Assembly: GCA_937872095.1 (NCBI GenBank)
Contig: CALMNW010000070.1
Coordinates: forward strand, 30,542-94,541
DNA: 64,000 nucleotides
Source: an uncultured Verrucomicrobiota bacterium
Lineage (GTDB): Bacteria; Verrucomicrobiota; Kiritimatiellia; CAIQIC01; Lenti-01
Direction: 5' to 3'
The translations under genes and the position numbers were made by a program. A model generated the notes under the pieces. It was not told where the DNA came from and did not search any database. It worked only from the letters and a program-made list of their open reading frames with translations. Positions 33,584 through 56,933 of the stretch are shown here, piece by piece (within the stretch, counting starts at the first letter, position 1; each line of letters starts with the position of its first letter).

Positions 33584-33584
33584 C

Positions 33585-34421: not shown

Positions 34422-35676
<1,255 letters not shown>

Positions 35677-35680
<4 letters not shown>

Positions 35681-41071: not shown

Positions 41072-41072
41072 C

Positions 41073-43199
41073 ATGCGCTTCCTGGTCGGATCCGATTACG
41101 CGCGCGACCCCAATGCCGGGGCCGCCGGCACGATCGTCTGGACAAACCGGGCACTGCGGGAACTGGGCCACGAGGTGGACGAATTCTGGGCCGCGGATTT
41201 GCCGCGCCGAATCCGGCACGGCAATCTCCATTATCTGCTGGAATTGCCGGGCGCTTTCCGCCGGGAAGTGGCCGCGCGCTGCCGCCGGAAGGCGTATGAT
41301 GCGGTGATCCTCGACCAGCCCCACGCCTTCCTCGCCGGCGAATACCTCCAGGCGCACCATCCGGAAGTCCTGTTCCTCAACCGCACGCAGGGCTGGGAAG
41401 CGCAGGCCGACGAAGCGCTGCAGGCGTTGAAGCCGGCCGGAACGTCGCGACCGGGTCTGTTGCGCGGCGCGGCGCAGGAAACCATGCGGCGCCTGTTGCT
41501 TCGCCACCAGGACCGCGTCGTGGCCTGCGCCGACGGCATCTTGGCGGGCTGTTCGCCCGTTCCCGACTACCTCGAGCGGAAGTATGGCTATCCCCGCGAA
41601 CGCGTCGCGGTCATTCCCTACGGCGTCACCGATGAATTCATCCGGCGTCCGCTGTCCGCCGACCCGGACCGCTGGCGGCGGCTGTTGCACGTCGCGCAGT
41701 TCGCGCCATTCAAGGCGCCGGAAATCGTCGCCGCCACGTTCAGCCGCATCCTGCGGGAACGACCGGATGTCCGGGCCGATTGGGTTTGCGACGTCCGGCA
41801 TCACGGGCAGGTGCGGGAACGGTTCGCGCCCGAATTGCGGGACCGGGTCCGGCTGCATCCGTGGGCGGACCAGTCGGAACTGGTGGCGCTGTACGACGCC
41901 TGCGGCATCTTCCTGTTTCCTTCGCACTACGAAGGTTTCGGCAAGACGCCGTTCGAAGCCATGGCCCGCGGTCTCGCAGTGGTGGCCACGCGGGTCGGCG
42001 GCCTCGTGGATCTCGTCCGGGACGGCGAGAACGGCTATCTGTGCGCACCGGGGGACGCCGAGGGGCTCTACCGGCGCGTCGCGCAATTGCTGGACGCCCC
42101 CGCGCAGGCGGCGCAGCTGGGAGCACAGGCCCGCCGCGACGCGGCGCAACTGACCTGGCCGAACCACGCCCGGGCGCTGGCGGAATTCGTCGCGCGGCGG
42201 CAGGCGGAAAAGGGTCGGCGCATCCGGACATGCGGAAAGGACGTCTCGTCGGAAATCCCGTCCGTGGCTGCGGCCGGTCGGACGGCGCCGGCCGTCAGCG
42301 TCGTGGTGCCGACCTATCGGCGCGGGGCCGCGCTGCTGGACACCTTGGGCCATCTGCTGGTGCTGGAACCGCCGCCGGGCGAAATTCTGGTGGTGGACCA
42401 GACCGAGGCGCATCCGGCGAGCGTGGCGGAACAGCTCCGGCAGCTGGAAAACGCCGGGCGCATCCGGGTTCTCCGTTTCTCGCCGCCGTCGATCCCGCGC
42501 GCCATGAACGTCGGGTTGCGCGAAACGCGGAATCCCGTGGTGCTTTACGTGGACGACGACGTCGTTCCCGCGTCGGACTTGGTGGCCGCCCACGCCGCCC
42601 GCTATGCCGGCGATTTTGCCGCCGTGTGCGGACAAGTGCTCCAACCGGGCGAAAGCCCCGATCCGGACGCCAACCGCGGGCCGCGCGGCACGGGGTTCAT
42701 GGCCGACCTCGATTTCCGGTTCAACGGCACGCGCGCGATCGAAATCGCCAGCGTGATTTCCTGCAATCTGTCCGTGGATCGCGCCGCGGCGCTGGCCATC
42801 GGCGGCTTCGACGAAGGCTTCATCGGTTCCGCGTACCGCTACGAAACGGATTTCGCCCGGCGCCTGCTCGCGGCCGGCGGGCGGATTCTCTTCGCCCCGG
42901 AAGCGTCCCTGCGCCACCTGCGGCTGCCGACCGGCGGCACGCGCAGCCAAGGCGACCATCTGGAACGGCCTGCGCCGGGACATGCTTTTGGCGACTACTA
43001 TTTTGCTTTGCGCCACGCGTGCGGCGGGGAGCGGCTCCGCTATCTGGCGGGCCGGCTGGTCCGCGAAACCTGCAATCGCTATTATCTCCGGCATCCGTGG
43101 AAACTGCCGCGCAAGCTGGGGAGCGAATTCACGGCCTGGCGTTGGGCTTGGCGCCAAGCCCGCCTCGACCCGCTTTTTCCGGAAACGCGACGGCCATGA
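41073..43199 (+). CDS. Bifunctional glycosyltransferase: N-terminal GT4 (GT1_like; FPSHYEGFG) fused to a C-terminal GT2 domain (VSVVVPTYRR...VDDDV)
   Basis: Both domain signatures are present in the 708-aa product. Confidence 0.8.
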   Translation: MRFLVGSDYARDPNAGAAGTIVWTNRALRELGHEVDEFWAADLPRRIRHGNLHYLLELPGAFRREVAARCRRKAYDAVILDQPHAFLAGEYLQAHHPEVLFLNRTQGWEAQADEALQALKPAGTSRPGLLRGAAQETMRRLLLRHQDRVVACADGILAGCSPVPDYLERKYGYPRERVAVIPYGVTDEFIRRPLSADPDRWRRLLHVAQFAPFKAPEIVAATFSRILRERPDVRADWVCDVRHHGQVRERFAPELRDRVRLHPWADQSELVALYDACGIFLFPSHYEGFGKTPFEAMARGLAVVATRVGGLVDLVRDGENGYLCAPGDAEGLYRRVAQLLDAPAQAAQLGAQARRDAAQLTWPNHARALAEFVARRQAEKGRRIRTCGKDVSSEIPSVAAAGRTAPAVSVVVPTYRRGAALLDTLGHLLVLEPPPGEILVVDQTEAHPASVAEQLRQLENAGRIRVLRFSPPSIPRAMNVGLRETRNPVVLYVDDDVVPASDLVAAHAARYAGDFAAVCGQVLQPGESPDPDANRGPRGTGFMADLDFRFNGTRAIEIASVISCNLSVDRAAALAIGGFDEGFIGSAYRYETDFARRLLAAGGRILFAPEASLRHLRLPTGGTRSQGDHLERPAPGHAFGDYYFALRHACGGERLRYLAGRLVRETCNRYYLRHPWKLPRKLGSEFTAWRWAWRQARLDPLFPETRRP

Positions 43200-43870
43200 A
43201 TTCCAACGTCGGAAACGAGATGAGCCGGCCGAACGTCCACGACGATTCGCGGTCGCTCTATCGGCACGACGACCGGCCGCCGTGCGCAAGCGGCTACCTC
43301 GCGCCTCTCGTCGTGCGCGCCTGCCGCGCCGCCGGCGCCCGGCGCGTTCTCGACTTGGGTTGCGGCAACGGCACGTTGTGCCGCGCTTTGGCGGAGGAAG
43401 GATTCGAGGTCGTTGGGCTGGAACCGAGTGCCAGCGGAATCGCGGCTGCCCGCCGGGCCGTTCCGGAAGGGGTTTTCCACCTGGGCAGCGTCTACGACGG
43501 TCCAGAGATCGTTCCAGAAGGCAATTTCGACGCGGTGGTCAGCACCGAAGTGGTCGAACACCTGTTCCGGCCCGCGGCGTTGCCGGCCTTGGCCCGCGCG
43601 AAGTTGAAAGCCGGCGGCTTGTTCGTGGTGTCCACGCCGTACCACGGCTATCTGAAAAACCTGCTGTTGGCGCTGGCCAACCGCTGGGATTTCCACCATT
43701 CGCCGAACTGGGATGGCGGCCATATCAAATTTTGGTCGCGCCGGACGCTGACGGAACTGCTGGAATCCAATGGATTCGCGGTGGCGGAATTCCATGGCGC
43801 CGGCCGCCTGCCGTGGTTGTGGAAATCCATGGTGGTGGTGGCGCGGAAGACGCCCGGGGAGCGGCCATGA
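43196..43870 (+). CDS. Class I SAM-dependent methyltransferase (Methyltransf_11/23-like)
   Basis: It has the RVLDLGCGNG glycine-rich motif I. It overlaps its neighbour as ATGA. Confidence 0.8.
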   Translation: MNSNVGNEMSRPNVHDDSRSLYRHDDRPPCASGYLAPLVVRACRAAGARRVLDLGCGNGTLCRALAEEGFEVVGLEPSASGIAAARRAVPEGVFHLGSVYDGPEIVPEGNFDAVVSTEVVEHLFRPAALPALARAKLKAGGLFVVSTPYHGYLKNLLLALANRWDFHHSPNWDGGHIKFWSRRTLTELLESNGFAVAEFHGAGRLPWLWKSMVVVARKTPGERP

Positions 43871-45048
43871 AACTCCACCTGGCCATCGTCGAAACGCATC
43901 CGATCCAGTACAAGGCGCCGCTGTTTCGGAAACTGGCGGCGGATCCGCGCCTCGATTCGACCGTGTTTTTCGCGCTGGTGCCCGATGCCGCGCAGCAGGG
44001 CGCCGGTTTCGGCGTGCCGTTCGAATGGGACGTGCCGCTGCGCGCAGGCTACCGCAGCGAAGTGCTGGAAAATCGGGCGCGGCATCCTTCCGCGACGACG
44101 TTCGCCGGTTGCGACACGCCGGAAATCTACGCGCGCCTGCGGGAATTGCGTCCGGACGCGGTGTTGGTGAACGGCTGGGTCGCGAAGACCTGTCTGCAAG
44201 CGCTGTGGGCCTGCAAGCGGCTCGGAATTCCGTGCCTGGTGCGCGGCGAGGCGAATCTCCTCCGGCCTCGCGCGGCGTGGAAGCACGCGCTGCACGGGTT
44301 GCTGTTGCGGCAGTACGCCGGCTGGCTCGCCATCGGTTCCGCCAACCGCGAGTTCTATCGGTTCCACGGCTGTCCCGAAGGCCGCATCTTCTGGGCGCCC
44401 TACGCGGTGGACAACGATTTCTTCGCCGCGCAAGCCGCCGCGCGCGCCGGACGCCGGCGCGAACTGCGCGCCGCGTTCGACCTGCCGGCGGAGGCCGTCG
44501 TCTTCCTGTTTGCCGGCAAATTGGAAGAGAAGAAGCGGCCGATCGATTTGCTGGAGGCCGTCGCGCGAATCCCGGCGGACTTGCGTTCCCGCGTCCACGT
44601 GCTGGTGGCGGGTGAGGGCCCGTTGCGCGACGCCTGCGAGCGGCGCGCGCGGGCGGACAACCTGCCCGCGACGTTTGCCGGTTTCCTCAACCAGTCGCGC
44701 TTGCCGGACGCCTATGCCGCCGCGGACGTCCTCGTGCTGCCGTCGGACGCGGGCGAGACCTGGGGTCTGGTCGTCAACGAAGCGATGGCCTCGGGGCGGC
44801 CGGCCGTCGTATCGCGCGCGGCCGGTTGCGGAACGGATCTCGTCGTCGAAAACGAAACGGGCCGCGCTTTCGCCTGCGGCGACGTCGCGGCGCTGGCGGA
44901 TATCCTCGGGGCCTATGCGCGCGATCCGGCCGCGGCGGCCCGGCAGGGCGCCGCGGCGGCGGAACGCATCCGCGCATACGGCCTGGAAACGGCGGCCGCG
45001 GGAATCGCGGCGGCCGTGCAAGCTTGCGGGGGAGGTTCCCCATGCTGA
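43867..45048 (+). CDS. GT4-family glycosyltransferase
   Basis: It is a 393-aa GT-B type protein with a C-terminal E-x7-E region (LPSDAGETWGLVVNEAMASGRP). Confidence 0.8.
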   Translation: MKLHLAIVETHPIQYKAPLFRKLAADPRLDSTVFFALVPDAAQQGAGFGVPFEWDVPLRAGYRSEVLENRARHPSATTFAGCDTPEIYARLRELRPDAVLVNGWVAKTCLQALWACKRLGIPCLVRGEANLLRPRAAWKHALHGLLLRQYAGWLAIGSANREFYRFHGCPEGRIFWAPYAVDNDFFAAQAAARAGRRRELRAAFDLPAEAVVFLFAGKLEEKKRPIDLLEAVARIPADLRSRVHVLVAGEGPLRDACERRARADNLPATFAGFLNQSRLPDAYAAADVLVLPSDAGETWGLVVNEAMASGRPAVVSRAAGCGTDLVVENETGRAFACGDVAALADILGAYARDPAAAARQGAAAAERIRAYGLETAAAGIAAAVQACGGGSPC

Positions 45049-46406
45049 ATGGGCTCGCGTTGCTGGTGGCGGCGGCCTGCCTGATCGCCTTGACGAACTG
45101 GCGCTGGGGCATCTGCGCCGCCATCTTGGTCAGTTTTCTCCAGGATCCGCTGCGCAAGGTGATTCCCGGCGCGCCGGCCTATCTGGTGCTGGCCGCTTTG
45201 CCGATCTGGCTGTGCGCGCTGCTGTCGGCCGCCCGCGTCCGCCAATTGCCGGTCAGGCGGTTTCTGGACCAGTTCCCGCGTCTCGGTTGGTGGGCCCGGA
45301 TTTTCGCGGCGTATCTCGTGATTCCGGCCGCGATTTCCGCGACCTACGGTCGGAATTCATGGATGATCACGCTGCTGGGCGCCTTCGTGTACGCGGCCAT
45401 GTTCCTGATGCTGGTGGCGGGGTGGCGGTTTCCCGTCCGGGACTTCGGACCCACGCGGCTTCTGGCCGTCTACGCGGTAGCCGCCACGCTGATGCTGCTC
45501 GGAGGGCCGTTGGAGGTGCTGGGGCACCAGGCGGGCAATCCGTTGCTCGGCACCGAAGCGCTGGGCCACGTCTGGGTGACGCAGCGCACGGGCGCGGCGG
45601 TCTACATGCACGCGGGATTTTTCCGCAGTCCGGACGTGATGGGTTGGCATGCGGCGCTGACGTTCATGGTGGCCGTCATTCTGGCCTTTCGTTCGAAGGG
45701 AGCCGCACGCGGATTCTGGGTGGCCGTGGCGGTGCTGGCGATCTTGAACGTCTGGTTTTGCGGGCGCCGCAAGATGTTATCCATGATCCTGGTTTTCCTG
45801 GGTTGCTACACGCTGTTCGTGTTCCGCTTTGCGCGCATCCAGAAAATCCTGTCGGCCAGCGGCACGGCCTTGATGGTCGTGGGATTGGGCTGGTATTTGA
45901 TTACGTCGATGTTCTACGACGAAGCGGTCGAGCGGTTCTACTTGACGGCCTTCACCGAGGCCGACGAACAGATCCAGCGCCACGGGGTCCAGGCGGTGCT
46001 GGGAACGGTCCGGCAGGCCGGATTTTGGGGCTATGGCCTCGGCATGTCCCAGCAGGGCGTCCACAACATCCCGAACGTGGAAACGCCCCATCTGTGGCAG
46101 GAAAGCGGACCGGGAAAACTCGTCGCGGAACTCGGCGTGCCGGGCAACGTCCTGTATCTCGGCTTGGGCATCGCGATGTTCATCACGGCCTACCACGTGG
46201 TGCGCCGCACGCATGGCCGACCGGCGTTCTATCTGGCCGCCGGCCTGTTTTCGGTGCTGGCGGCCAACGTGGCCTCGTCCGTGGTGTCGGCCCAGATTTT
46301 CGGCGATCCGTTCGTGGCGTTCCTGTTGGCATTTCTGGCGGGATTGCTGTTGTCCTGCGCGCGCGCCGGGCCCGCGCCGCCGGCGGAAACGGAGCCGGGG
46401 CCATGA
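45042..46406 (+). CDS. Second O-antigen ligase/Wzy-like polymerase membrane protein
   Basis: It is polytopic with a large periplasmic loop (GFWGYGLGMSQQG). The SD is GGAGG. Confidence 0.7.
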   Translation: MLNGLALLVAAACLIALTNWRWGICAAILVSFLQDPLRKVIPGAPAYLVLAALPIWLCALLSAARVRQLPVRRFLDQFPRLGWWARIFAAYLVIPAAISATYGRNSWMITLLGAFVYAAMFLMLVAGWRFPVRDFGPTRLLAVYAVAATLMLLGGPLEVLGHQAGNPLLGTEALGHVWVTQRTGAAVYMHAGFFRSPDVMGWHAALTFMVAVILAFRSKGAARGFWVAVAVLAILNVWFCGRRKMLSMILVFLGCYTLFVFRFARIQKILSASGTALMVVGLGWYLITSMFYDEAVERFYLTAFTEADEQIQRHGVQAVLGTVRQAGFWGYGLGMSQQGVHNIPNVETPHLWQESGPGKLVAELGVPGNVLYLGLGIAMFITAYHVVRRTHGRPAFYLAAGLFSVLAANVASSVVSAQIFGDPFVAFLLAFLAGLLLSCARAGPAPPAETEPGP

Positions 46407-47485
46407 AGAAGCGGCTGGTTTGGATTCGCACCGCGCCGCCGGACCTTCCCGGCAGCATGGCCGCCTTTGGCGACCTGGTGCGGCAAGCCGTCGAGCCGTT
46501 GGCGGACGACTGGGAACGGTCGACGTGCGACCTGTTCGATCCGCGCGGCGGCGCCTCCATGTGGCGGCACCATCTGTGGCGTCTGCGGCATGCCCGCCGC
46601 GTGCTCGCGGCGCAGCCCGCCGATCTTTGCCATTGGCTGGACGGTTCGATGGCGGCCTTCATCCCCCATGCGCTGCGCGCCCGCAGCGTCGTCACGGTCC
46701 ACGATCTGATTCCGTTGCTGCAACTGCGCGGGGAATTGCCGGGGCGTCCCAGCGCGCCGGCCGCGTGGCTGATCCGGCGCGGCATCCGGGCCTTGCGCGG
46801 TTGCGCCGGCCTGTGCGCGGATTCCGCGGCCACGCGGGCCGATCTCGCGCGGCTGGCGGGCATCGCGGAACGCGTGGCCGTGGTTCCCGTGCCGGTGCGG
46901 CTCCTGCCGCCGCCGCAGCCGGTCGCGGTGGCCGGCCTGCCGCCCGGCGCGCGCTACGTCCTGCATGTCGGCAACAATGCGGGCTACAAAAACCGTTTGG
47001 GCGTTTTGGCCGTATTTTCCCGTCTGCGCGATCTGGCGGATTTGCATCTGGTGTTGGCCGGCCCGCCGCCGACCCGCGCGTTGCGCGCCGCGGCCGCACG
47101 CCTGAAACGCGTGCATTTCGCCGGGCCCGTGGACGACGCCCAGCTGAACGGCCTTTATCGCGGCGCGGCCGTTTTCCTGTTCCCGAGCCTCTATGAAGGC
47201 TACGGCATGCCCGTGCTGGAGGCCATGGCGGCGGAGTGCCCGGTCGTGTGTTCCACCGCGCCGGCGTTGGTCGAAGTGGCGGGTGCGGCCGCGCTCTGCG
47301 CGCCGGCGTCCGATCCCGAAGCGCTGGCCGCGCAATGCCGGATGGCGTTGTCCGACGCCGATCTGCGGGGCAAGCTGGTCGCGGCGGGCCGCGCCCGCGC
47401 CGGCGGTTTTGACGTTGCTTCGTTGGGCCGATCCTTGCTGAAATGCTACGAACAGGCGTTGGAGCGAAAGGAACCCCATGGCTGA
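46403..47485 (+). CDS. GT4-family glycosyltransferase
   Basis: It has an FPSLYEGYGMPVLEAMAAECPVV motif. It overlaps its neighbour as ATGA. Confidence 0.8.
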   Translation: MKKRLVWIRTAPPDLPGSMAAFGDLVRQAVEPLADDWERSTCDLFDPRGGASMWRHHLWRLRHARRVLAAQPADLCHWLDGSMAAFIPHALRARSVVTVHDLIPLLQLRGELPGRPSAPAAWLIRRGIRALRGCAGLCADSAATRADLARLAGIAERVAVVPVPVRLLPPPQPVAVAGLPPGARYVLHVGNNAGYKNRLGVLAVFSRLRDLADLHLVLAGPPPTRALRAAAARLKRVHFAGPVDDAQLNGLYRGAAVFLFPSLYEGYGMPVLEAMAAECPVVCSTAPALVEVAGAAALCAPASDPEALAAQCRMALSDADLRGKLVAAGRARAGGFDVASLGRSLLKCYEQALERKEPHG

Positions 47486-48059
47486 TACGGCATCATCTCG
47501 AATCCGGGTGGACCGGGCCGCCTGTCCGAGTCCCCATTCGGCCGCCAACAAGCTGGCTCGTTTGCTGTGGCAGGCCGCGTGGCTCCTGCTGTTCCGGCCT
47601 TCGCCGTGGTTCTGGCACGCGCCGCGCCGCGCGCTGCTGCGCCTGTTCGGAGCGAAGCTGGGGAAAAACGTCCAGATCATGCCGTCGGTTCGGATCTGGG
47701 CGCCTTGGCACCTGTCGCTGGGGGACTTTGCGACCGTCGGCGCCGGCGTGGATCTCTACGACGTGGACCGCATCGAGATCGGCGCCCACGCCACGATCAG
47801 CCAGCGCGCCTTCCTGTGCACCGCCACGCACGACGTGGATCATCCGAACATGCCGTTGCAAACCGCGCCGATCCGGATCGGCGCCGGCGCGTGGGTTTGC
47901 GCGGAGGCCTACGTGCATCCCGGAGTGGAAATCGGGACCGATGCCGTCGCCGGCGTGCGCGCCGTGGTGCTGCGCGACGTGCCGCCGGGGCAGATCGTGG
48001 GCGGCAACCCCGCGAAATTCCTGCGGACGCGCCATTTGGAGAATGCGGGGCCGGAGTGA
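47478..48059 (+). CDS. Hexapeptide-repeat (left-handed beta-helix) acetyltransferase, WcaF-like
   Basis: The product contains IGAHATISQRAFLCTATHDVDH...IGAGAWVCAEAYVHPGVEIGTDAVAGVRAVV. Confidence 0.85.
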   Translation: MADTASSRIRVDRAACPSPHSAANKLARLLWQAAWLLLFRPSPWFWHAPRRALLRLFGAKLGKNVQIMPSVRIWAPWHLSLGDFATVGAGVDLYDVDRIEIGAHATISQRAFLCTATHDVDHPNMPLQTAPIRIGAGAWVCAEAYVHPGVEIGTDAVAGVRAVVLRDVPPGQIVGGNPAKFLRTRHLENAGPE

Positions 48060-48886
48060 CCGTGCCGCTTTCCATTTCGGCGGTCGTGTTGTCCCACAAC
48101 GAAGCGGCCAACCTGCCGCGTTGCCTGCGCGCGCTGCGAGACTGCGCCGAAGTCGTCGTGGTGGACGACGGCAGCACCGACGATAGTCCGCGGGTCGCCG
48201 CCGAGTGCGGCGCGCGCGTCGTGGTCCATCCCTTCGCCTCGTTCGCCGACCAGCGCAATTGGGCGATGGACGCAGCCGGTCTGCGCTGCGACTGGGTTCT
48301 GCATCTGGACGCGGACGAAGTCGCGCCGCCGGAATTGCTGGCCGAAATCCGGCGCCGCCTGCCGGCGCTGGAGGCCGGCGCCGTCGGCCAGCTTGCGCGC
48401 AAGGTGATGCTCGGGGAAAAATGGCTGAAGCACAGCGCGGATTATCCCGTCTTCGTGCCCCGTCTCGTCCATCGCCGCGGCCCGCGCTACGTCATGCGCG
48501 GCCACGGCGAAACGCTGGCGGCCGCGTCCGGAGCCGCCGTCTATTTCGACGCGCCGCTGCGGCACTACAATTTCTCCAAAGGCTGGGCCGAATGGCGCGT
48601 GCGGCACTTGCGCTATGCCGCCGCCGAAGCCGCGCGCATCCGTTCCGGCGGGGCGGCTCTTTCCTTGCGCGCGCTGGTCGCGCCGGACCGCTCCGTCCGC
48701 CGCGCCGCGTTGCGGGCGCTGTCCTACCGGCTGCCCGGTCGGCCGGCGCTTCGGTTTCTCTACGCCTATCTGCTGCGGCTGGGCTTTTTGGACGGCCGGG
48801 CCGGCTGGACCTTTTGCCGCGCCATGGCCTCCTACGAACGCATGATCGACGCCGAACTGCGCAAGCCGCAGGCGGAAGCGAAATGA
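48056..48886 (+). CDS. Family 2 glycosyltransferase
   Basis: The product reads ISAVVLSHNEAANLPRCLRAL...VVVDDGSTDDS...HLDADE. The GTG start overlaps its neighbour as GTGA. Confidence 0.8.
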   Translation: MTVPLSISAVVLSHNEAANLPRCLRALRDCAEVVVVDDGSTDDSPRVAAECGARVVVHPFASFADQRNWAMDAAGLRCDWVLHLDADEVAPPELLAEIRRRLPALEAGAVGQLARKVMLGEKWLKHSADYPVFVPRLVHRRGPRYVMRGHGETLAAASGAAVYFDAPLRHYNFSKGWAEWRVRHLRYAAAEAARIRSGGAALSLRALVAPDRSVRRAALRALSYRLPGRPALRFLYAYLLRLGFLDGRAGWTFCRAMASYERMIDAELRKPQAEAK

Positions 48887-50076
48887 ACGTCGTGCTGGTC
48901 AACCAGTTCTTTCCGCCGGCGGAGGCGCCGACGGGGATCCTGCTGGGCGACGTGGCCGCGGAACTGGCGCGCCGGGGACACCGCGTGACGGTCGTCGCTT
49001 CGGCCGCGGCCTACGGAGCGGGCGCGGAGGCGCCGGTGCCCGCCGGCGTGCAAGCGGTCCGGGTGGGGCCGGAGACCCGGCATCGCGATGGCCCCGCCGC
49101 GAAGTTCGCCGATTATCTGTCGTTCGTGCGCGGAGCCTGGAAGGAGCTGTCGCGCCGGGAGCGTCCAGATGCGGTGCTGTGCCTGACCACGCCGCCGTTC
49201 ATCGGTCTTCTGGGCGCGCATCTGCGAAAACGCAGAGGCGTGCCGTTCGTGCTGTGGTGCATGGATCTCTACCCCGAGGCGTTGTCGGCGCACGGTTGGC
49301 TGCGGCCGTGGAATCCGCTGAAGCCGCTGCTGGCCGCTCTGGCGCGGGAAGAACGCCGCCGGGCTTCCGCCGTCATCGCCCTCGGACCGGACATGGCGGA
49401 ACGGCTGGCCGCCTCGGGCGCGCGGCGCGTGGAAACGGTTCCCGTCTGGAGCGGTCTCGCGGTTTCGCCGTCTCGGGAAACCGAAGCGCGCGCCCTGCGC
49501 CGCGCGCGCGGCTGGGCCGACGACGACGTCGTCCTGCTTTACAGCGGCAACATGGGGCGCGCCCACCGGGCGGACGACTTCGCCGCCCTGGCCGAAAGCC
49601 TGCGCGGCCGCTCGCCGCGCTGCCGGTTCGTTTTTTCCGGCGGCGGCCCGCTGCGGTCGGAATGGGAGCGGAAATGGAGCGGGCTTTTCGAATTCATGCC
49701 GGCGGTGGCCGGCGATGCATGCGTCGCCCATTTGCTCGCCGCCGACGTCCATCTGGTTTCCCAGCAGCCGGCCTGGACGGGCGTCGTGGTGCCGAGCAAG
49801 TTCCCGGCCGCCTGCGCCTTGGGGAAGCCCGTCGTTTTCGCCGGTCCGCCGCAGAGCGCCGTCGGCCGATGGCTGGCGGAAGCGGATGCGGGTTGGCTCT
49901 TGGCGCCCGGCGCCGCCGCGGCTTCCGAGCAAGTCGCCCGCGAAGTTCTCCGGGCGGATGTGCGCGCCGCCAAGGGCGCGCAAGCGGCCCGCCTTTTCCG
50001 GCAACGGTTCGCGCCGGCGGAAAATTGTGGTAAGATCGCCAACTTGATCGAACACGTCGCGGAAGAACGGCCATGA
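48883..50076 (+). CDS. GT4-family glycosyltransferase (WcaI-like)
   Basis: It is GT-B type. It overlaps its neighbour as ATGA. Confidence 0.8.
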   Translation: MNVVLVNQFFPPAEAPTGILLGDVAAELARRGHRVTVVASAAAYGAGAEAPVPAGVQAVRVGPETRHRDGPAAKFADYLSFVRGAWKELSRRERPDAVLCLTTPPFIGLLGAHLRKRRGVPFVLWCMDLYPEALSAHGWLRPWNPLKPLLAALAREERRRASAVIALGPDMAERLAASGARRVETVPVWSGLAVSPSRETEARALRRARGWADDDVVLLYSGNMGRAHRADDFAALAESLRGRSPRCRFVFSGGGPLRSEWERKWSGLFEFMPAVAGDACVAHLLAADVHLVSQQPAWTGVVVPSKFPAACALGKPVVFAGPPQSAVGRWLAEADAGWLLAPGAAAASEQVAREVLRADVRAAKGAQAARLFRQRFAPAENCGKIANLIEHVAEERP

Positions 50077-51968
50077 CCTTCGAAGCCATCCTGAAATATC
50101 CGGCGGTATTCCTCGCGGGGATGCTGGCTGTTTGGGCGCTGACGCCGTTGTGGCGGCGGCTCGCGCCGCGCTGGGGATTTCTGGACCGGCCCGGCCGGCG
50201 CAAGGTGCACCGCCAACCCGTTCCGCGCGGCGGGGGGCTCGCGGTGTTCGTCGGATTCCACGTCGCCTGCGCGGTTGTGTTCCTGTTCCCGTGGGAACCG
50301 TTTGCGGGCCAGTTGTCCATCGCGTGGTGGTTTCGTTTCCTGCCGGTGAGCGCCGGCGTGGTGCTGCTGGGCCTGCTGGACGACCGCTGGGATCTCAAGC
50401 CGATGGTGAAACTGGCGGGGCAGGTGGTCGTCGCGGCCGCCGCCTACGAGTCGGGCATCCGTCTCCAGAACATCCTGGGGTTTGCGTTTCCGGGCTGGGT
50501 GGATGCGCTCGCGACGATTTTCTGGTTCGTCGCGCTGATGAATGCGTTCAACCTGATCGACGGCGTGGACGGCTTGGCGGCGGGCATCGCGCTGATCGCG
50601 GCCACCGGCATCGGCTTGTCGCTGGTGTTCCGCGGCGCGCCGGGCGACGTGCTGCTGTTCCTGGGCCTGGCGGGCGCCTGCCTGGGATTCCTGCGCTACA
50701 ATTTCCATCCGGCGAGCGTGTTCCTGGGCGACGCCGGCAGCCTGTTCCTGGGGTTTGCGCTGGCGGCGCTCTCGATCTCGACGAATTCCAAGGGACCGTT
50801 CATGGCGGGTCTCGGCGTGCCGCTGCTGGCGGTGGGCGTGCCGTTGTTCGACGTGGTGCTGGCCGTGTGGCGCCGCGCCATGCGCCGGCTGCTGAACCGC
50901 GCGGACGGCCAAGGGCCGGCGCCCGGCTTGGACGAAGGGGACGCCGAACATTTGCACCACCGCCTCCTGCGGCAGGGACGAGGGCAGGGACAGGTGGCGG
51001 GGCTGCTCTACGTCGCGACCTTGGCGCTGGTGGCGGTGGGGTTGCTGGCCACCATATTCCACGATCGCGCTCTGGGCATCCTGGTGCTGGCGTTTCTGCT
51101 GGCGGCCTACACCGTCGTTCGCCATCTGGCGGGCATCGAGCTGCACGAAAGCGGCCGAGTGGTCCTGCAGGGACTGGCGCGACCGGTCCGGCGCAACCAG
51201 ACGCTTTTGTTCTACATCGTGGGCGATTTGTTCATTTTGAATATCGTGCTGCTGGCAGGACATGCGTTGCTGGACTTGCAAGACGGCGTGCTGGACGTGC
51301 CCCTGAAGACCGCCTGGTTGCAGTCCGCGCCCATGGACCTGTTCGTGCCGTTCGTGGTCCTGTTGCTGTTCCGGTCCTACTCGCGCGTCTGGTATCTGGC
51401 GCGGGTGTCGGAATACGCGGCGACGGGCTTGGCCGTGACGTTGGGCTACGCCATCGCCGCCGGGCTCCAGTTGCTCGTCGCGCGCAGCCGCGGGGAAGTG
51501 CTTTCGCTGGTGCTGTACTATCTCCTGCTGGCGGGGCTCGCGGCGCCCGCGGTGGTGATGACCCGCGCCGCCTTGCGCGTGGTGCAGGACCTGATGCAGT
51601 GGCGGACGCGCGGCTCCCGGCCCGACGGCGCCGCGCCCGCGCGCGCCCTCGTCTGCGGCGCCGGCTACCGCACCACGCTGTTCCTCCGGCAGATTCCTTT
51701 CCGCGTCGCCGATCGCGCCCCCGTCGACGTCGTCGGCTTGGTCAGCGCGGATGCCGCCATCACGGGACACGCCGTGCACGGCATTCGCGTCGTGGGCACC
51801 TATCGCGATTTGCCGGCGCTGGTGGTGCAGCACCGGATCGACGTCCTCTATCTCGTCGAAGCCGTGGACGACGCGGAAGTCGCCGGATTTTGCCGGATGC
51901 TGAAGGGGCTGCCCGTGCGGCTGGTCCGCTGGGACATCGTCGAAACGGACGTTCCGCTGCATGCGTAG
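50073..51968 (+). CDS. Initiating polyprenyl-phosphate sugar-1-phosphate transferase of the MraY/WecA (GT4 polytopic) family, fused to extra TM helices and a C-terminal Rossmann/CoA-binding-like domain
   Basis: It has the MraY/WecA motifs (LLDDRWDLKP, NAFNLIDGVDGLA, HPASVFLGDAGS). The C-terminal segment (ALVCGAGYRT...) resembles the WbaP/PglF-type N-domain. Confidence 0.85.
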   Translation: MTFEAILKYPAVFLAGMLAVWALTPLWRRLAPRWGFLDRPGRRKVHRQPVPRGGGLAVFVGFHVACAVVFLFPWEPFAGQLSIAWWFRFLPVSAGVVLLGLLDDRWDLKPMVKLAGQVVVAAAAYESGIRLQNILGFAFPGWVDALATIFWFVALMNAFNLIDGVDGLAAGIALIAATGIGLSLVFRGAPGDVLLFLGLAGACLGFLRYNFHPASVFLGDAGSLFLGFALAALSISTNSKGPFMAGLGVPLLAVGVPLFDVVLAVWRRAMRRLLNRADGQGPAPGLDEGDAEHLHHRLLRQGRGQGQVAGLLYVATLALVAVGLLATIFHDRALGILVLAFLLAAYTVVRHLAGIELHESGRVVLQGLARPVRRNQTLLFYIVGDLFILNIVLLAGHALLDLQDGVLDVPLKTAWLQSAPMDLFVPFVVLLLFRSYSRVWYLARVSEYAATGLAVTLGYAIAAGLQLLVARSRGEVLSLVLYYLLLAGLAAPAVVMTRAALRVVQDLMQWRTRGSRPDGAAPARALVCGAGYRTTLFLRQIPFRVADRAPVDVVGLVSADAAITGHAVHGIRVVGTYRDLPALVVQHRIDVLYLVEAVDDAEVAGFCRMLKGLPVRLVRWDIVETDVPLHA

Positions 51969-53103
51969 GCTGCTGGTCAACGCGCTGTCGGTCGCCAATC
52001 CGAGCGGATTGCACGTGTTGCTGGGGCATCTGGATCAGGTGGCGGACGCGTTGCGGGATCGCGTTCGCCTCGTGGTGCTGTGCCGCGCGGACGCGGCCGG
52101 CCTGCGCGCGGGGCTGGGGGAGCGCGCCGATTGGGAGTTCGCGCCCGCGTTCACGCGCGGCTGGTTCCGGCGCGCGTGCTGGGAGCGCGCGCATCTCGCG
52201 CGGCTCGCGCGGCGGCACGAAGCCTGCGCGGTTTTCACGCCCAGCGGCATCGCCGCGCACGGCCTCGACGTTCCCCAGATCGTGTTTTGCCAGAATCCGT
52301 GGGCGCTGGTGCCGGCCGCCCGCCGCCGCCGCGACGCGTTCAAGGCGGGATTGCAGCGCCGGGCCTATCGCCGCGCCATGCGCGCGGCCGACGTCCTGGT
52401 CTTCAATTCCCGCTACATGCAGGCGGCCTATCGCGCCAACGCCGGCTGCGAAGAAAAACGCGGGCTCGTGGTTTACCAGGCCGCGGACGACGCCACCCGC
52501 GCCCGGGCGGCCGCGGCGGCGGACGTCCCGCGCCAGGCCGGCCAGATCCTCTGCGTTTCCGTGATGGCGCCGCACAAGAACGCCGAAGCGCTCGTGCGCG
52601 CCTTGCGCGTCGTCCGGGACGGGAATCCGGCGGCGCGCCTCGTTTTCGCCGGTTCGTGGCCCGACGCCGCCTACGAACGGAAGATCCGCGCGCTCGTCGG
52701 CTCGCTGGGCCTGGGCGGGGCCGTCGAATTCCTCGGATTCGTTACGCGCGAACGGCTGGACCGCCTGTACGCCGAGTCGCGCGTCTTTTGCCTGATGAGC
52801 CGGTGCGAATCCTTCGGCATTCCCGCCGTCGAGGCGCAGGGGTTCGGGACGCCCGTCGTCGGTTCCACGGTCTGCGCCGTTCCCGAAATCGGCGGCGCCG
52901 GCGGCTTGTTCCGCGATCCGGACGACGTTTCCGGCATCGCCGCCGCCCTGCGGACGTTGCTGGAAGACGACGCGGAATGGCGGCGGCTTTCGGCTGCCGC
53001 GCGGGCGAACGCCGCGCGGTTTACCTGGGCCGAATGTTCCCGGCCCTTGGTCGATCTCGTCGCCGAACTGGCGGGATCCGGAACCGGCGGCATCCGCGCA
53101 TGA
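51961..53103 (+). CDS. GT4-family glycosyltransferase
   Basis: It has an MSRCESFGIPAVEAQGFGTPVV motif. Confidence 0.8.
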   Translation: MRRLLVNALSVANPSGLHVLLGHLDQVADALRDRVRLVVLCRADAAGLRAGLGERADWEFAPAFTRGWFRRACWERAHLARLARRHEACAVFTPSGIAAHGLDVPQIVFCQNPWALVPAARRRRDAFKAGLQRRAYRRAMRAADVLVFNSRYMQAAYRANAGCEEKRGLVVYQAADDATRARAAAAADVPRQAGQILCVSVMAPHKNAEALVRALRVVRDGNPAARLVFAGSWPDAAYERKIRALVGSLGLGGAVEFLGFVTRERLDRLYAESRVFCLMSRCESFGIPAVEAQGFGTPVVGSTVCAVPEIGGAGGLFRDPDDVSGIAAALRTLLEDDAEWRRLSAAARANAARFTWAECSRPLVDLVAELAGSGTGGIRA

Positions 53104-54071
53104 ACGTCGCGCCGGCGAGCCTGAAGATGAAATTGGCGTTGTCGGCCGGCGCGTTTCTCGTAGCGGGCGGGCTGCTGGAATTGGCCTGCCAGGCGACGTA
53201 CGCCTTCGGCGTAGCGCCCCAATTGGCCGCGCAGCGGAACGATCCCGCGCATTACTACGAGGCGTCCGACGATTCCGTGTTGGCGTATCGCCTCAAGGCC
53301 GATTGCCGGATCGAGAAGGACGGCCGCGTCGTTTGCATCAATCGCCATGGTTTGCGCGACGATCGCGACGACTTGGCCGCGCCGGCCAGCGTGGCGTTGC
53401 TGGGCGACTCCGTGCCGTTCGGCATCGCGCTGTCGCAGGACGAAACGCCGGCGGCCGCCCTGCAGCGGCTGGCCGGCGCCGAAACGCGCGTCCTGAATTT
53501 CGGCGTCCCCGGCTACGGAGTCCAGGAATTGCGGCGCGAATTGGAGCGGATCTTTTCCCTGTGCCGCCCCAGCCGCATCTATTACGTTCTCAACCCCAAC
53601 GATTTTTCCGTGCGCGGCACCTTCACGGAGGGCGGCGACAACGGGTTGTATCGCATGTACGTCCCGCCGGCGCTGAAGACGCCTTTTTTCGTGCGCAAGG
53701 CGATCTACCGTTTTATGAAGGGGGGAAGGATGTCGTCCGTGCGGTGGTACCGCTGGCTGTACGAAAGCAACAAGACGCAATTGCTGCCGGTCATTGCGGA
53801 GATGGCGGAATTCGCCCGTGCCCGGGGCAGCGAACTGGTCGTGGTGCCGTTTCCGCCGGCCGTGGCCTATGCGGCGGACGGCCGGTTCGCCCTGCAGGAC
53901 GTTTTCGACGAAATCGGCGATTATCTGCGGGCCAACCGCATCCCCGCGCTGGCGCCCGTCGCCGAATTCGGCCAAAACGTCTACGCGCTGCAGGACGACA
54001 CCGACCACTTGACCGCCGCCGGCAGCGAAGTCCTGGCACGCGCGATCTGGCGGGATTTCACAAAGGAATGA
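53100..54071 (+). CDS. SGNH/GDSL-like hydrolase (candidate polysaccharide O-acetyl esterase/acyltransferase)
   Basis: It has an N-terminal TM helix and block I (LLGDSVPFG). It overlaps its neighbour as ATGA. Confidence 0.6.
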   Translation: MNVAPASLKMKLALSAGAFLVAGGLLELACQATYAFGVAPQLAAQRNDPAHYYEASDDSVLAYRLKADCRIEKDGRVVCINRHGLRDDRDDLAAPASVALLGDSVPFGIALSQDETPAAALQRLAGAETRVLNFGVPGYGVQELRRELERIFSLCRPSRIYYVLNPNDFSVRGTFTEGGDNGLYRMYVPPALKTPFFVRKAIYRFMKGGRMSSVRWYRWLYESNKTQLLPVIAEMAEFARARGSELVVVPFPPAVAYAADGRFALQDVFDEIGDYLRANRIPALAPVAEFGQNVYALQDDTDHLTAAGSEVLARAIWRDFTKE

Positions 54072-55648
54072 ACGGGAACGCAGCGATGGCGGAACGCGAA
54101 CAGACCGGCCGGGCATGGACCTGGGGCATGATCGTCCTGGCGGGAGGGGTACCGTTCGCGGCGGACATGTTGCGCAATTTCCAGCTGTTCGCCCCCGCGC
54201 AGCTGGCCTGGTCGTTCGCGGCGGTACTGGCCGGCACGACCGGCGCGTTCAGCCTGTGCGCGCTGGCTCTCGCGGCGCTTGGGCGGCGTTGGCCGGCGAT
54301 CCGCGCGCGCTGGGCCGCGCGGACGTTCGCGGGCGTCGCCGCGCTGGTTTTCGCCGCGTTCCTGTACGACGCGAACCTGACGGAATTGCGGATCGGCTAC
54401 GGTTTGCCCCGGCTGGCGGCGGTCGCCGCCGTGGCGGCGCTTTTCGTTCTCTACTGGGCCGTGGCGGCGCGGCTGGGCGCCAAACGAACCAGCCTGCTGC
54501 TGCTGATCCTGCTGGCCGTCCGCGCCGATCAGGCCGCTCGGACCGTCGCATCCACGGCGACCCGCGGCAACGAGCTGATTTCGGCGGCGGAAATGGGAAT
54601 CTACGATCAAGTGAAACTGGCGCGCACGCCGAACATCTACTTCATCTGCCTGGAGTCCTACCACGGTTTCGGCGCGATGCGGGAGCTGTACGGATTCGAC
54701 AACGCGGAGTTCCGGGAATTTCTCGGCGAAAACGGATTCGTCGTCGCGGAAGACGTGCTGTCGAACTATTCGTTCACCATGACCAGCCTGCACTCCATCC
54801 TGCTGATGGGACACCACTACGCGGCGGGCGCGTTCGGCAACCACGATTCCCTCTATGCCCGCGGCTTCATTTCGGGCAGCGGGACCTACTACAATCCGAC
54901 GCTTCGCATTCTGAAGCGGAACGGCTACGACGTCGTTTACCTGCTGCCTTCGGACTACTACTACCGGCCCGGCGCGGGCTTGGTGGATTACTCCTTGCTG
55001 AACCGGTCCTGGCCGTTCGCGCCGCTGAAGGTCAGCCTGCCGCGGTTCATCGGCCGCGAGCCGGACACCTTGGTGCCGGATTACCCGCGCCAGGTGGCGG
55101 AAACCCTCGCGCGCTGGCCGCTGGACCGCCCGGCGTTCTTTTTCGCCAAGCTGGGGGCGGAGCATGCGGCGGACGGCTACGACTATCGGACCGACCGGGA
55201 GGCGTTCGCCGCGCGCTACGTCGAAACCGTCGCGCGGGAAAACGCCGCGATCGAGGTGCTGGTGCGGCAGATCGCCGCGCGCGATCCGCAGGGCATCGTC
55301 GTGCTGGCCGGCGACCACGGCGCCCAAAGCTACAAGTGCCGCGCGCGCGGTTTCGCGGCGACGAAGCAAGCCGGCGAAGTGCCCGTTGGCCGGCTCGTGC
55401 GGGATTGCCACGACGTCTTGCTGGCCATCCGCTGGGGCGCCGGCCAGGAAGCGGCGCCGTATCCCTACCGGAGCCTGGTCAACCTCATGCGGTTCGTGTT
55501 CGCGCAACTGGGCGGGGGCGGGGCCTTGGAGCAAACGGCGGCCGCCGATTCCTCCTATCTGCTGGACGACGTCGGCCTGCTGCGCGTGGCCGAGGACGGG
55601 CAACCGTTGGCGGATTGGACCCTCGTGCCGCGGAAGGGGTGGCGGTAG
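54068..55648 (+). CDS. Membrane-anchored alkaline-phosphatase/sulfatase-superfamily protein (LTA-synthase/phosphoethanolamine- or phosphoglycerol-transferase-like)
   Basis: About 5 N-terminal TM helices precede a domain with the motifs NIYFICLESYHGF and VVLAGDHG. Confidence 0.65.
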   Translation: MNGNAAMAEREQTGRAWTWGMIVLAGGVPFAADMLRNFQLFAPAQLAWSFAAVLAGTTGAFSLCALALAALGRRWPAIRARWAARTFAGVAALVFAAFLYDANLTELRIGYGLPRLAAVAAVAALFVLYWAVAARLGAKRTSLLLLILLAVRADQAARTVASTATRGNELISAAEMGIYDQVKLARTPNIYFICLESYHGFGAMRELYGFDNAEFREFLGENGFVVAEDVLSNYSFTMTSLHSILLMGHHYAAGAFGNHDSLYARGFISGSGTYYNPTLRILKRNGYDVVYLLPSDYYYRPGAGLVDYSLLNRSWPFAPLKVSLPRFIGREPDTLVPDYPRQVAETLARWPLDRPAFFFAKLGAEHAADGYDYRTDREAFAARYVETVARENAAIEVLVRQIAARDPQGIVVLAGDHGAQSYKCRARGFAATKQAGEVPVGRLVRDCHDVLLAIRWGAGQEAAPYPYRSLVNLMRFVFAQLGGGGALEQTAAADSSYLLDDVGLLRVAEDGQPLADWTLVPRKGWR

Positions 55649-55654
55649 CCGTCG

Positions 55655-56746
55655 TCACGAACCGCCCAGCGCGCCGCGCGCCGGACGAAGCAGCCAGTAG
55701 AGTCCGCGCAGCGCGGGCGGCAGGGACAGCCGCCGGAAATCGCCGTCGCCCGGCGTGAACGTCCGGCGGAGACGGTAGGCCAGGATTTCGCTCCGCGTCA
55801 TGAACCGTTCGTGGAAGCGCCGCAGCTCGCGGCCGTCCATGCCGCGCGCCTGGCCGGCGAGCCGTGCGACGGCATGGGCGACGACGTCGGGATACATCCG
55901 GCCGACCGGCCCGAGCCCGGGACCGAAGATCGCGTCGGCGACGGCGCAACCGGCGGTCAGCGCCCGTTCGGCGAAAGGGCACGAGCGCGCCAGGGCCAGC
56001 GCCTGCGGAAAAACGTCCGGATGCCGCGCCAGCAAGCCGGCGACGTCCGCGATCCACGCCGCGCGGGCCCAGCCGTGCCAGATGGCGTGTTCGCAGCTCA
56101 ATAGCAGGTGCAGCGCGGGCGCGGGCGCGCGCACCGCGGCGGCATCCAGCGGTTGGGGCGCGAAGCCGTCCGTTCCCGAAACGCGGATCCGGCGCGGCCA
56201 GGGATAGTGCGGCGGAAAGAACCGGTGGTTGACTTCGACGAGAAACCCTTCCGGATGCCGGAACGCGATGCCCCAGCCATAGTGCCACAAGTGTTCCAGG
56301 CGCCGGGGATCGTCCGTGGCCGGGACGTAGCCGGCCGCCTGCAGGCCGGCCAGCAGGTGCGGAAAACCCGGCTTGGCGCAAAGAAAGTCGAGATCGTCGT
56401 AGCTGCGCAAGCCGGATTGGGGCCAGGCTTGCGCGGCCAAGGCCGGGCCCTTGACCAGCGCCAGCGACGGCAGGCGGGGGGCCAGCAAGGCGAACAGCCG
56501 TTCCGCTTCGCGGGTGAACCGCGCCGCATGTTGCGCCTGGCCGTAGGCCGCCGTTTTCAGCGCCTCGTCCGCGGCGGGGGCGGCCGTCGCCATCAGGCCG
56601 GTCAACCGGTGCCGCCGGGCCCAGGCGAACAGCCGCGCGGGAGATTCCGGCGCCGGAACGGTTTCGCCGGCAGGCGGCAGGCCGTGCCGCGCGCGGAAAG
56701 CCTGCCGGGCCATGGGAAGAAACGCGTCCATGCCCGGATTCGACAC
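55655..56746 (-). CDS. Uncharacterised nucleotidyltransferase (NTP_transf_5-like)
   Basis: The 363-aa product contains an SYDDLDFL motif. The start is uncertain: GTG at 56746, or ATG at 56731 or 56713. It is convergent with the EPS operon. Confidence 0.55.
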   Translation of the reverse strand: MSNPGMDAFLPMARQAFRARHGLPPAGETVPAPESPARLFAWARRHRLTGLMATAAPAADEALKTAAYGQAQHAARFTREAERLFALLAPRLPSLALVKGPALAAQAWPQSGLRSYDDLDFLCAKPGFPHLLAGLQAAGYVPATDDPRRLEHLWHYGWGIAFRHPEGFLVEVNHRFFPPHYPWPRRIRVSGTDGFAPQPLDAAAVRAPAPALHLLLSCEHAIWHGWARAAWIADVAGLLARHPDVFPQALALARSCPFAERALTAGCAVADAIFGPGLGPVGRMYPDVVAHAVARLAGQARGMDGRELRRFHERFMTRSEILAYRLRRTFTPGDGDFRRLSLPPALRGLYWLLRPARGALGGS

Positions 56747-56856: not shown

Positions 56857-56933
56857 GCGTCCGTAGCTCAATTGGACAGAGCTTCTGACTTCGGATCAGA
56901 AGGTTGCAGGTTCGAGTCCTGCCGGACGCGCCA
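56857..56933 (+). tRNA. tRNA-Arg: tRNA-Arg (anticodon UCG)
   Basis: A 77-nt cloverleaf: acceptor GCGTCCG/CGGACGC, D-stem GCTC/GAGC, anticodon stem TCTGA/TCAGA with loop CTTCGGA, T-arm GCAGG-TTCGAGT-CCTGC, discriminator G and an encoded CCA. Confidence 0.85.

Follow-up and report, generated by a model that had tools for sequence, protein, structure and literature searches.

A conserved NTP_transf_5 gene at the far end of a Kiritimatiellia polysaccharide locus encodes a probable tailoring enzyme of a distant ribosomal peptide pathway

Does a nucleotidyltransferase-fold gene that lies at the end of a polysaccharide locus serve the polysaccharide, or does it serve the peptide-modification genes at the other end of the same locus? 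The question is raised by a 64,000-nucleotide stretch of DNA from an uncultured Verrucomicrobiota bacterium of the Kiritimatiellia (contig CALMNW010000070.1), which we call the window. In it, a gene of the NTP_transf_5 family (PF14907) at 55655-56746 is set off by about 30 kb of exopolysaccharide (EPS) genes from a module, at 22959-25833, for a peptide that is ribosomally synthesized and is modified after translation (RiPP). NTP_transf_5 is a large uncharacterized family, and the only experimental handle on it is PsmN, which acts in the addition of hexose onto phosphoserine. Based on sequence, gene order and analogy with this enzyme, we favor the view that the window transferase is a displaced tailoring enzyme, of the PsmN/LppN type, of the RiPP pathway encoded by the module. 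A small phosphorylated ribosomal peptide and a polysaccharide are probably made here as one system.

A new member of the NTP_transf_5 family

Because the G+C content of the window is 66%, six-frame lists of its open reading frames (ORFs) are crowded with shadow ORFs. We built the gene map from a frame plot of codon-position GC and from filtered gene calls. Both show tightly packed plus-strand genes in one long run from 12994 to 55648, followed by a single minus-strand gene, the transferase. The codon-position GC of the latter (0.76, 0.57 and 0.85) indicates that 55655-56746 is coding. There are two candidate starts, an ATG at 56731 (358 amino acids, aa) and a GTG at 56746 (363 aa). The ATG is the likely start because an identical database protein (P0001) and nearly all of the orthologues begin with MD.FLP. 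Residue numbers given here count from the 363-aa form, and those counted from the ATG are five lower.

The initial annotation had recognized an NTP_transf_5 enzyme with an SYDDLDFL-type motif, and profile searches bear this out. The match to PF14907 has a score of 92.3 bits (E = 4.9e-26) against a gathering score of 31.2 and covers profile positions 5-249 of 249. The motif R-S-Y-D-D-L-D-F-L occupies residues 114-122, with SYDDLDFL at 115-122. D117, D118, L119 and D120 are invariant in 40 orthologues, as are G100 and E171, and the nucleotidyltransferase motif G-x...D-x-D is present together with a third acidic residue. Eight positions are common to the homologues from the Planctomycetes-Verrucomicrobia-Chlamydiae (PVC) clade and to the soil and lasso-type homologues described below: K99, G100, R114, D118, D120, G139, H220 and the acidic residue at 171 (E or D). 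The homologues of the transferase form 104 clusters of 40-100% identity, all of them already annotated as PF14907. An NCBIfam profile search returned no match for the transferase, and a sequence comparison with PDB chains gave nothing meaningful and no close solved relative.

We modeled the protein with AlphaFold2 (predicted local distance difference test, pLDDT, 93; predicted template modeling score 0.93). The best fold matches in the PDB were ANT(2'')-Ia (5cfs, 4xje, 4wqk), LnuA, 5uvd and TglT. Conserved helical domains outside the core make up about half of the protein. Judged from the profile match and the model, the gene is a new PF14907 member encoding a cytoplasmic nucleotidyltransferase-fold enzyme, with nucleotidyl or glycosyl-phosphate transfer as its predicted chemistry.

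As the best structural matches are antibiotic nucleotidyltransferases, one may ask whether the gene is simply an unrelated neighbor, for instance a small-molecule or antibiotic nucleotidyltransferase located between the EPS operon and a tRNA gene. Its separate strand and its own upstream region next to the tRNA-Arg gene would fit such an origin, as would the occurrence of a homologue among restriction-modification genes in one genome. We nevertheless consider this highly improbable. The fold matches are remote, the resistance enzymes have no counterpart of the conserved helical domains (about 250 additional residues) that the orthologues keep, and in 21 of 28 loci the gene has stayed at the EPS end despite inversions and gene insertions (see below).

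The gene had initially been placed at the far end of the EPS operon. It does lie at the far end of the locus, but it is not in the operon: it is convergent to the EPS genes on the opposite strand, and only 6 bp separate its stop codon, at 55655, from that of the last plus-strand EPS gene, at 55648. In this genome the transferase therefore adjoins the operon without being part of it. A scan of 55300-57200 for promoters and terminators found no sites.

The peptide module and the polysaccharide genes

The module at the other end of the locus contains four plus-strand genes that overlap one another by 4-14 nt and encode a PqqD-family recognition protein, a radical S-adenosylmethionine (SAM) maturase, a precursor peptide and a P-loop protein (Table 1). 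In NCBIfam, the models of the mycofactocin and PqqE maturases align full-length with the radical SAM protein, with scores below their cut-offs. In the precursor, which no curated family covers, a leader motif of PqqA/lasso-like type (Y.KP, here YEKP) is accompanied by an ETL motif, two Cys and a C-terminal Ser. Among its 98 database homologues, 97 have Ser at the C-terminus (the sole exception is truncated) and 86 end in GGS. Throughout the family, Y..P, ETL and C-K are invariant, as are a second C, a P and the terminal S. These homologues define a widespread precursor family, with a near-invariant C-terminal Ser, for testing the substrate of the transferase.

The ORF at 24512 had been proposed to encode an HprK-related protein, and this assignment holds. 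A database protein identical to it (P0105) and all of its homologues carry a precomputed PF27840 (ScmC) annotation. Its Walker A motif, GRSGAGKST, does not vary among 42 homologues. When we compared the AlphaFold2 model (pLDDT 92) with the PDB, the top 48 matches (E <= 1e-3, down to 1e-5) were all HprK/P or PEPCK. On the strength of this model the protein has the HprK/PEPCK fold, and we refer to it below as the kinase.

A gene for a small signal-peptidase-I-like protease sits in an apparent gap after the kinase gene, on the opposite strand, and parallels the LppS leader peptidase of the linear polyphosphorylated peptide (LPP) clusters of Bacillota. Its best NCBIfam match is TIGR02228, archaeal-type signal peptidase I (36.1 bits, E = 5e-9, below the 51.85 cut-off), and its PF00717 score is 22.7 bits. 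The peptidase is conserved in every related locus that we examined, among them L006, L007 and L064-L070, where it follows the kinase, and it has a homologue in the peptidase gene of the soil cassette described below. PqqD is conserved in four of these loci (L006, L007, L064 and L066), where it is preceded, as in the window, by a protein with the giant SdrD_B/Peptidase_C25 architecture.

We considered three known cluster types for the module and rejected each of them. As a lasso cluster, it is without cyclase and B2 protease matches. As a TIGR04352 system, its kinase is far below the 200-bit cut-off. As an SCM cassette, the scores against the ScmC, ScmD, ScmE and ScmF models are far below the cut-offs.

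The polysaccharide locus that follows the module is co-directional with it. Besides a FecR-like protein and a BBP2_2 porin, it encodes Wza, Wzc and Wzy_C, an ABC-2 permease, a Wzt ATPase, about twelve glycosyltransferases of the GT2, GT4 and STELLO families, two methyltransferases and a hexapeptide acyltransferase. The distal genes encode the WecA-like initiating transferase, a further GT4, a 364-aa protein without assignment and a membrane sulfatase-family protein. The Wzy_C-family gene is conserved in related loci; this family includes O-oligosaccharyltransferases that glycosylate the C-terminal Ser of pilin.

Some further observations concern individual genes of the locus. The region 32270-35680 (plus strand) bears the marks of both export routes: for the one, Wzy_C, Wzc and Wza; for the other, an ABC-2 permease and a Wzt ATPase that has a Wzt_C domain. 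The WecA-like protein has a C-terminal extension of about 250 aa that weakly resembles the N-terminal part of EPS polyprenyl glycosylphosphotransferases (TIGR03025 positions 2-206). The last gene of the operon (54068-55648, plus strand) encodes the membrane-anchored sulfatase-family protein, whose PF00884 score of 24.7 bits is just under the cut-off. This gene was found in some related genomes only (L009, L010, L012 and L014).

Conservation of the split arrangement

The PqqD and HprK-like genes and the transferase had been said to bracket a polysaccharide locus of about 30 kb. The gene map agrees, with the module at 22959-25833, the transferase at 55655-56746 and the polysaccharide genes between them. 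Homologues of the transferase and of the kinase occur in Kiritimatiellia-like, Lentisphaerae and Victivallales metagenome-assembled genomes. We mapped the window proteins onto 28 genome loci of the PVC clade (Kiritimatiellia, Lentisphaerae). In 21 of the 28 loci, the transferase is located at the EPS end with the WecA-like gene adjacent or one to three genes away; another 6 loci were too short to judge. The conserved block beside the transferase consists of GT4, an unknown protein of 460 aa, GT4, hexapeptide, GT2, GT4 and the WecA-like gene, in this order, and can be extended after the WecA-like gene by a GT4, the 364-aa protein and the sulfatase-like gene. The same arrangement at the EPS end is repeated in an extra contig from the Joint Genome Institute (L072). 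The transferase is mostly convergent to the EPS block. It is co-directional in six loci (L008, L019, L020, L022, L026 and L036), and in all of these except L019 it immediately follows the WecA-like gene in the same direction, with an 8-nt overlap in L008.

Both ends are present on one record in five contigs, including the window, and the transferases of these contigs are 47-100% identical to that of the window. The gap between the kinase and the transferase is 30.2 kb in the window, 30.5 kb in contig_35302, 31.1 kb in CAZECJ010000002 and 40.4 kb in CAYNSH010000001, all with a convergent transferase, and 30.9 kb in JBMXUA010000033, where the transferase is co-directional. In each of the five, PqqD is directly preceded by the giant SdrD_B/Peptidase_C25 protein, as in every related contig seen, and the kinase is followed by the small peptidase. 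In addition, 16 apparent same-contig matches link the list of transferase matches (or the genome loci) with the lists of kinase or peptide matches. This conserved synteny, with a gap of 30-40 kb in five contigs, supports the initial suggestion that the EPS genes and the peptide module form one functional unit, which gene order makes likely.

The same neighborhoods are also compatible with a transferase that is solely a polysaccharide enzyme. It would work with the WecA-like protein, for instance by attaching a nucleotide or a phospho-modification to a lipid-linked sugar or to a sugar substituent, and the peptide module would be a neighbor that acts separately within one surface-structure island. 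This is the main rival to a role in the peptide pathway, and the neighbors within the lineage favor it. The WecA-like gene is the most constant of them: in the genomes that diverge most (40-50% identity) it is the direct neighbor of the transferase, and in L008 the two are translationally coupled. The kinase is 30-40 kb from the transferase in every measured PVC contig. PF14907 genes also occur beside phosphonate-biosynthesis genes without peptide context (PMC8942020). On the other hand, both ends are present in the PVC loci wherever both can be examined. Further evidence against this rival comes from other phyla.

Homologues in other phyla

The six most distant genome homologues (L037-L042; 27-32% identity), from a deltaproteobacterium, Binataceae and Gemmatimonadaceae, all belong to lasso-type clusters, and in each of these an HprK-like ORF lies immediately upstream of the transferase on the same strand. 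PqqD was identified in five of the six. In L037, for instance, the order is PqqD, Asn-synthase-like cyclase, kinase, NTP_transf_5 (193 bits) and ABC exporter, and the neighbors were confirmed by Pfam. The clusters of two Gemmatimonadaceae (L040 and L041) encode PqqD, a PrmA-like methyltransferase, an Asn-synthase-like cyclase, an HprK-like kinase and NTP_transf_5. Their precursors (L040 9488-9658 and L041 3729-3914) have a YxxPxLxxxG leader and end in ...RTG, not in Ser.

Scanning metagenomes with the kinase alignment brought up 21 soil loci. The scan found distant soil relatives only and no PVC orthologues, leaving the counts of bracketed loci unchanged. In L046-L053 the core consists of kinase, PqqD, radical SAM and peptide, to which longer contigs add a beta-propeller, a 167-aa protein and signal peptidase I; the peptidase of L050 scores 54.3 bits with TIGR02228, above the 51.85 cut-off. 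An NTP_transf_5 gene (196 bits in L050) is directly upstream of the kinase in L048, L050 and L059, and in L061 it lies beside PqqD and the kinase. The transferase is thus directly beside the kinase in four soil contigs, three of which also have PqqD there. In two contigs the cassette is contiguous (L048 4891-12055 and L050 8169-15554) and runs NTP_transf_5, ScmC-like kinase, PqqD, radical SAM, peptide, PQQ_2 beta-propeller, 167-aa protein and signal peptidase I. A PAS/GAF hybrid histidine kinase precedes the soil cassette. A possible link through a 971-aa protein upstream of the cassette, which matches three window genes, was set aside as generic PAS/histidine-kinase similarity.

The soil-cassette peptides are 54-59 aa long (...YETLALACGK.PGQGG.C..APRRS). 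Seven of them fit the pattern of the window family (...PYTKPSV.SEPIYETLALACGK.PGQGG.C..APRRS), with a C-terminal Ser in 7 of 7, and they are homologous to the window peptide, with which they have Y.KP, ETL, C-K...C and the terminal S in common. The soil cassette and the window share the same six protein/peptide families and homologous precursors, and the cassette proteins are about 29-36% identical to those of the window. Unlike the window, the cassette is contiguous, has no EPS genes in the available flanks and includes the transferase in some contigs only. We found no description of the soil cassette in the literature searched; it seems to represent a RiPP family that is not yet described and that is related to the window module.

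The initial annotation had further proposed that the three families travel together. They do in the loci described above, and a published survey of the LPP clusters of Bacillota (Popov et al. 2026, PMC13381572, Supplementary Data 2) counts NTP_transf_5 140 times and PqqD 151 times around 126 LPP-family signal-peptidase genes. Two findings argue against a transferase that works on the polysaccharide only. In every non-PVC locus that we retrieved, the homologue lies beside an HprK-like kinase in a peptide-type cluster (in most cases with PqqD), not beside glycosyltransferases, and the sole experimentally studied relative, PsmN, acts on a phosphopeptide. Weighing the neighbors within the lineage against the cross-phylum data and this precedent, we regard an exclusive role in the polysaccharide as somewhat unlikely.

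Proposed pathway

In the pathway that we consider the most probable, the PqqD recognition protein would bind the 61-aa precursor through its Y-x-K-P leader motif, and the radical SAM enzyme would modify the Cys-containing core. The HprK-fold ScmC kinase would then phosphorylate a serine, most likely the invariant C-terminal Ser, and the signal-peptidase-like protease would trim the leader. The phosphoserine would finally be elaborated by the nucleotidyltransferase, in a PsmN-like manner, using its DxD plus Glu metal site. Because the transferase is kept beside the WecA-like initiating transferase, we infer that it shares a sugar or nucleotide co-substrate, or its product, with the polysaccharide pathway. 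This suggests a testable idea, namely that the missing partner or substrate of the transferase comes from the polysaccharide pathway.

Several observations weigh against a role of the transferase in the peptide pathway. First, 30 kb separate it from the peptide genes in the window, where it lies on the opposite strand and has its own upstream region. Within the lineage the transferase is linked most tightly to the WecA-like gene, so it could serve the polysaccharide alone. Second, there is one clear exception to the synteny: L001 (same contig as L017) has a 68%-identical transferase with no EPS genes within 10 kb. Its neighbors (L001 6301-9604, GCA_050176815.1) are restriction-modification (Mrr_cat, Eco29kI), NYN and DAHP synthase genes. 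Third, three soil contigs with adequate flanks and the same peptide family (L047, L049 and L052) have no transferase near the kinase, from which we conclude that the pairing of kinase and transferase is recurrent but accessory to the cassette.

Other points concern the assignments of the proteins themselves. The fold matches of the transferase are weak (E of 5e-3 to 6e-2, 12-17% identity) despite a probability of 1.00. The kinase is below every curated HprK-related cut-off, with 35.4 bits against 200 for TIGR04352, 29.1 against 125 for TIGR04249 (ScmC), 24.0 against 200 for TIGR04355 and 19 against 33 for PF07475. The site of phosphorylation is also uncertain because the LPPs use a core Ser3 and the window peptide contains a further Ser, that of ETLS; the window family differs from the LPPs in its invariant C-terminal Ser.

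A bolder variant of this pathway is that the product is a conjugate of the ribosomal peptide and the polysaccharide. The C-terminal phosphoserine of the radical-SAM-modified peptide would be converted by the transferase, acting next to the WecA-like enzyme, into a sugar-phosphodiester or a nucleotide-activated peptide, which would then be extended by the glycosyltransferases or receive the finished glycan, so that the peptide primes, caps or anchors the polymer encoded by the 30 kb of genes. The evidence for a tailoring enzyme applies equally here. The two enzyme sets are fixed at the two ends of one co-directional glycan operon over 47-100% identity, and the Wzy_C-family gene is conserved in the locus. 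PsmN puts hexose on a phosphate (PMC6993621), and the authors of the LPP study allow for a contribution of polysaccharide genes to peptide modification (PMC13381572). The neighborhood alone cannot separate conjugation from co-regulation, however, and the locus encodes complete, ordinary export machinery for a free polymer. We therefore hold a conjugate to be unlikely. If true, it would account for the PsmN/LppN-type clusters inside capsule loci of Bacillota and for the inactivity of LppN outside its native context.

Other features of the window

The coordinates of the features are collected in Table 1. Just past the tRNA-Arg gene, a gene at 57101-58393 (plus strand) encodes a secreted protein of the DVUA0089 family with pre-peptidase C-terminal (PPC) repeats. 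This gene is absent from the two closest related genomes (L009 and L023), and in them a homologue of the window gene at 62202-63998 directly adjoins the transferase.

At the opposite end of the window, three large PAS-rich sensor histidine kinases are encoded at 824-11588 (minus strand), divergent from the giant SdrD_B/Peptidase_C25 protein. They differ in architecture, with PocR and GAF at the N-terminus in one, a periplasmic domain for solute binding in another, and a hybrid make-up that includes a receiver domain in the third. Beside them lies a gene for a thioredoxin-like protein (11671-12468, minus strand). These histidine kinases may be regulators of the locus.

Table 1. Features of the peptide module, the polysaccharide locus and their surroundings (window coordinates)
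Feature	Position	Strand	Evidence and remarks
Secreted protein, 3320 aa, SdrD_B x9 + GEVED + C-terminal Peptidase_C25 (gingipain-like)	12994..22956	+	Pfam; 3 bp before PqqD
PqqD-family RiPP recognition element, 98 aa	22959..23255	+	PF05402 E 2.2e-12
Radical SAM maturase, PqqE/MftC (SPASM) type	23252..24343	+	PF04055 E 3.6e-21; start overlaps PqqD stop
Precursor peptide, 61 aa	24330..24515	+	ATG 24330 (alternative ATG 24324); overlaps radical SAM 3' end and kinase start
HprK/PEPCK-fold P-loop protein, ScmC family (PF27840), 300 aa	24512..25414	+	TTG 24512; ORF from 24473/24512; presumed peptide Ser kinase
Signal-peptidase-I-like (S24/S26) protease, 150 aa, GPSMHPTIRDGD motif	25381..25833	-	Presumed leader peptidase
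Co-directional polysaccharide locus	25765..55648	+	Frame plot, gene calls, Pfam/NCBIfam
WecA/MraY-family (Glycos_transf_4) initiating transferase, 631 aa	50073..51968	+	PF00953 E 1e-35; TIGR02380 113 bits
NTP_transf_5 (PF14907) nucleotidyltransferase-fold enzyme	55655..56746	-	Pfam 92.3 bits
tRNA-Arg(TCG)	56857..56933	+	ARAGORN; divergent from the nucleotidyltransferase; outer edge of the locus

Comparison with known systems

In paeninodin-type lasso clusters, the precursor is phosphorylated on its C-terminal Ser by HprK-like kinases (PMC8498205). The closest experimental precedent for the next step is pseudomycoidin, for which PsmN is needed for one or two additions of a 162-Da hexose on the phosphate that the C-terminal Ser carries, and for which a D134A/D136A mutant of PsmN is inactive (PMC6993621). 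Its authors (Zyubko et al.) used Phyre2 to tie PsmN to ANT(2'') structures, the same templates that we found for the window transferase, and left undecided whether PsmN represents a novel type of glycosyltransferase or produces a substrate for such an enzyme (PMC6993621). The window resembles the PsmN/PsmK pair in combining an HprK-like kinase with an "uncharacterized NTP transferase" in which a DxD site is present and which is remotely similar to ANT(2'')-Ia. The pseudomycoidin precursor, like that of the window, ends in Ser, which is there phosphorylated and then hexosylated in a PsmN-dependent manner. Unlike lasso clusters, the window has a radical SAM core enzyme; a tblastn search of the window with the cyclase of L037 and the B2-like protein of L038 gave no match. 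PsmN and LppN are compared here by their published descriptions only.

The LPP clusters encode a signal peptidase I of archaeal type, a RiPP recognition element, an HprK-like kinase, an NTP_transf_5 enzyme and MsbA, and are found inside capsule loci (PMC13381572). The LppN-type genes belong to PF14907 (PMC13381572, Supplementary Data 2). The LPP kinase polyphosphorylates the core Ser3, and deletion of the transferase had no effect in a heterologous host, for which a partner encoded outside of the core cluster was proposed (PMC13381572). The leader consensus is YxxPxVLxHQxIxFETxxS, and its Y-x-x-P-x-[ILV] element is bound by the discrete recognition proteins of lasso peptides and LPPs (PMC13381572). 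The authors remark that polysaccharide genes around the clusters might take part in modifying the peptide, describe the family as restricted to Bacillota and leave its biological role open (PMC13381572).

Four of the five LPP core families have counterparts in the window, as do the YxxP...ET leader motif and the setting in a locus rich in polysaccharide and glycosyltransferase genes. For the fifth family, a tblastn search of the window with the ABC exporter of L037 met only the Wzt ATPase (25% identity), and Pfam matched only ABC-2/Wzt, so no MsbA-like exporter was found by these searches. The window differs from the LPP clusters in several respects. A radical SAM/SPASM-type maturase is translationally coupled between PqqD and the precursor, and the core contains Cys. 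The invariant Ser is C-terminal, whereas that phosphorylated in LPPs is the core Ser3. The peptidase is below the cut-off of TIGR02228, the archaeal-type signal peptidase I model of the LPP leader peptidases. Finally, the genome belongs to the PVC group (Kiritimatiellia-like) and not to Bacillota, and the transferase is set off by about 30 kb of EPS genes.

The SynChlorMet (SCM) cassette (ScmC, ScmD, ScmE and ScmF; TIGR04248-04251) is similar to the window in its combination of a PqqD-like protein, a PqqE-like radical SAM protein and a ScmC-type P-loop protein. The matches of the window to the ScmC, ScmD, ScmE and ScmF models are weak and below the cut-offs, however, and the window has one radical SAM gene instead of two. 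The names of the NCBIfam models indicate no nucleotidyltransferase in that cassette. Literature searches on ScmC and SynChlorMet returned unrelated acronyms only, and a search on PF14907 returned only the phosphonate survey cited above (PMC8942020).

Compared with the known phospho-RiPP systems that pair a kinase with an NTP transferase, the system of the window is new in three ways: it has a radical SAM step, it belongs to a different phylum, and it is split around an EPS operon. An enzyme set like that of the LPPs, with an added radical SAM step, is thus now seen in another phylum, where the transferase has long been held beside a polysaccharide-initiating enzyme.

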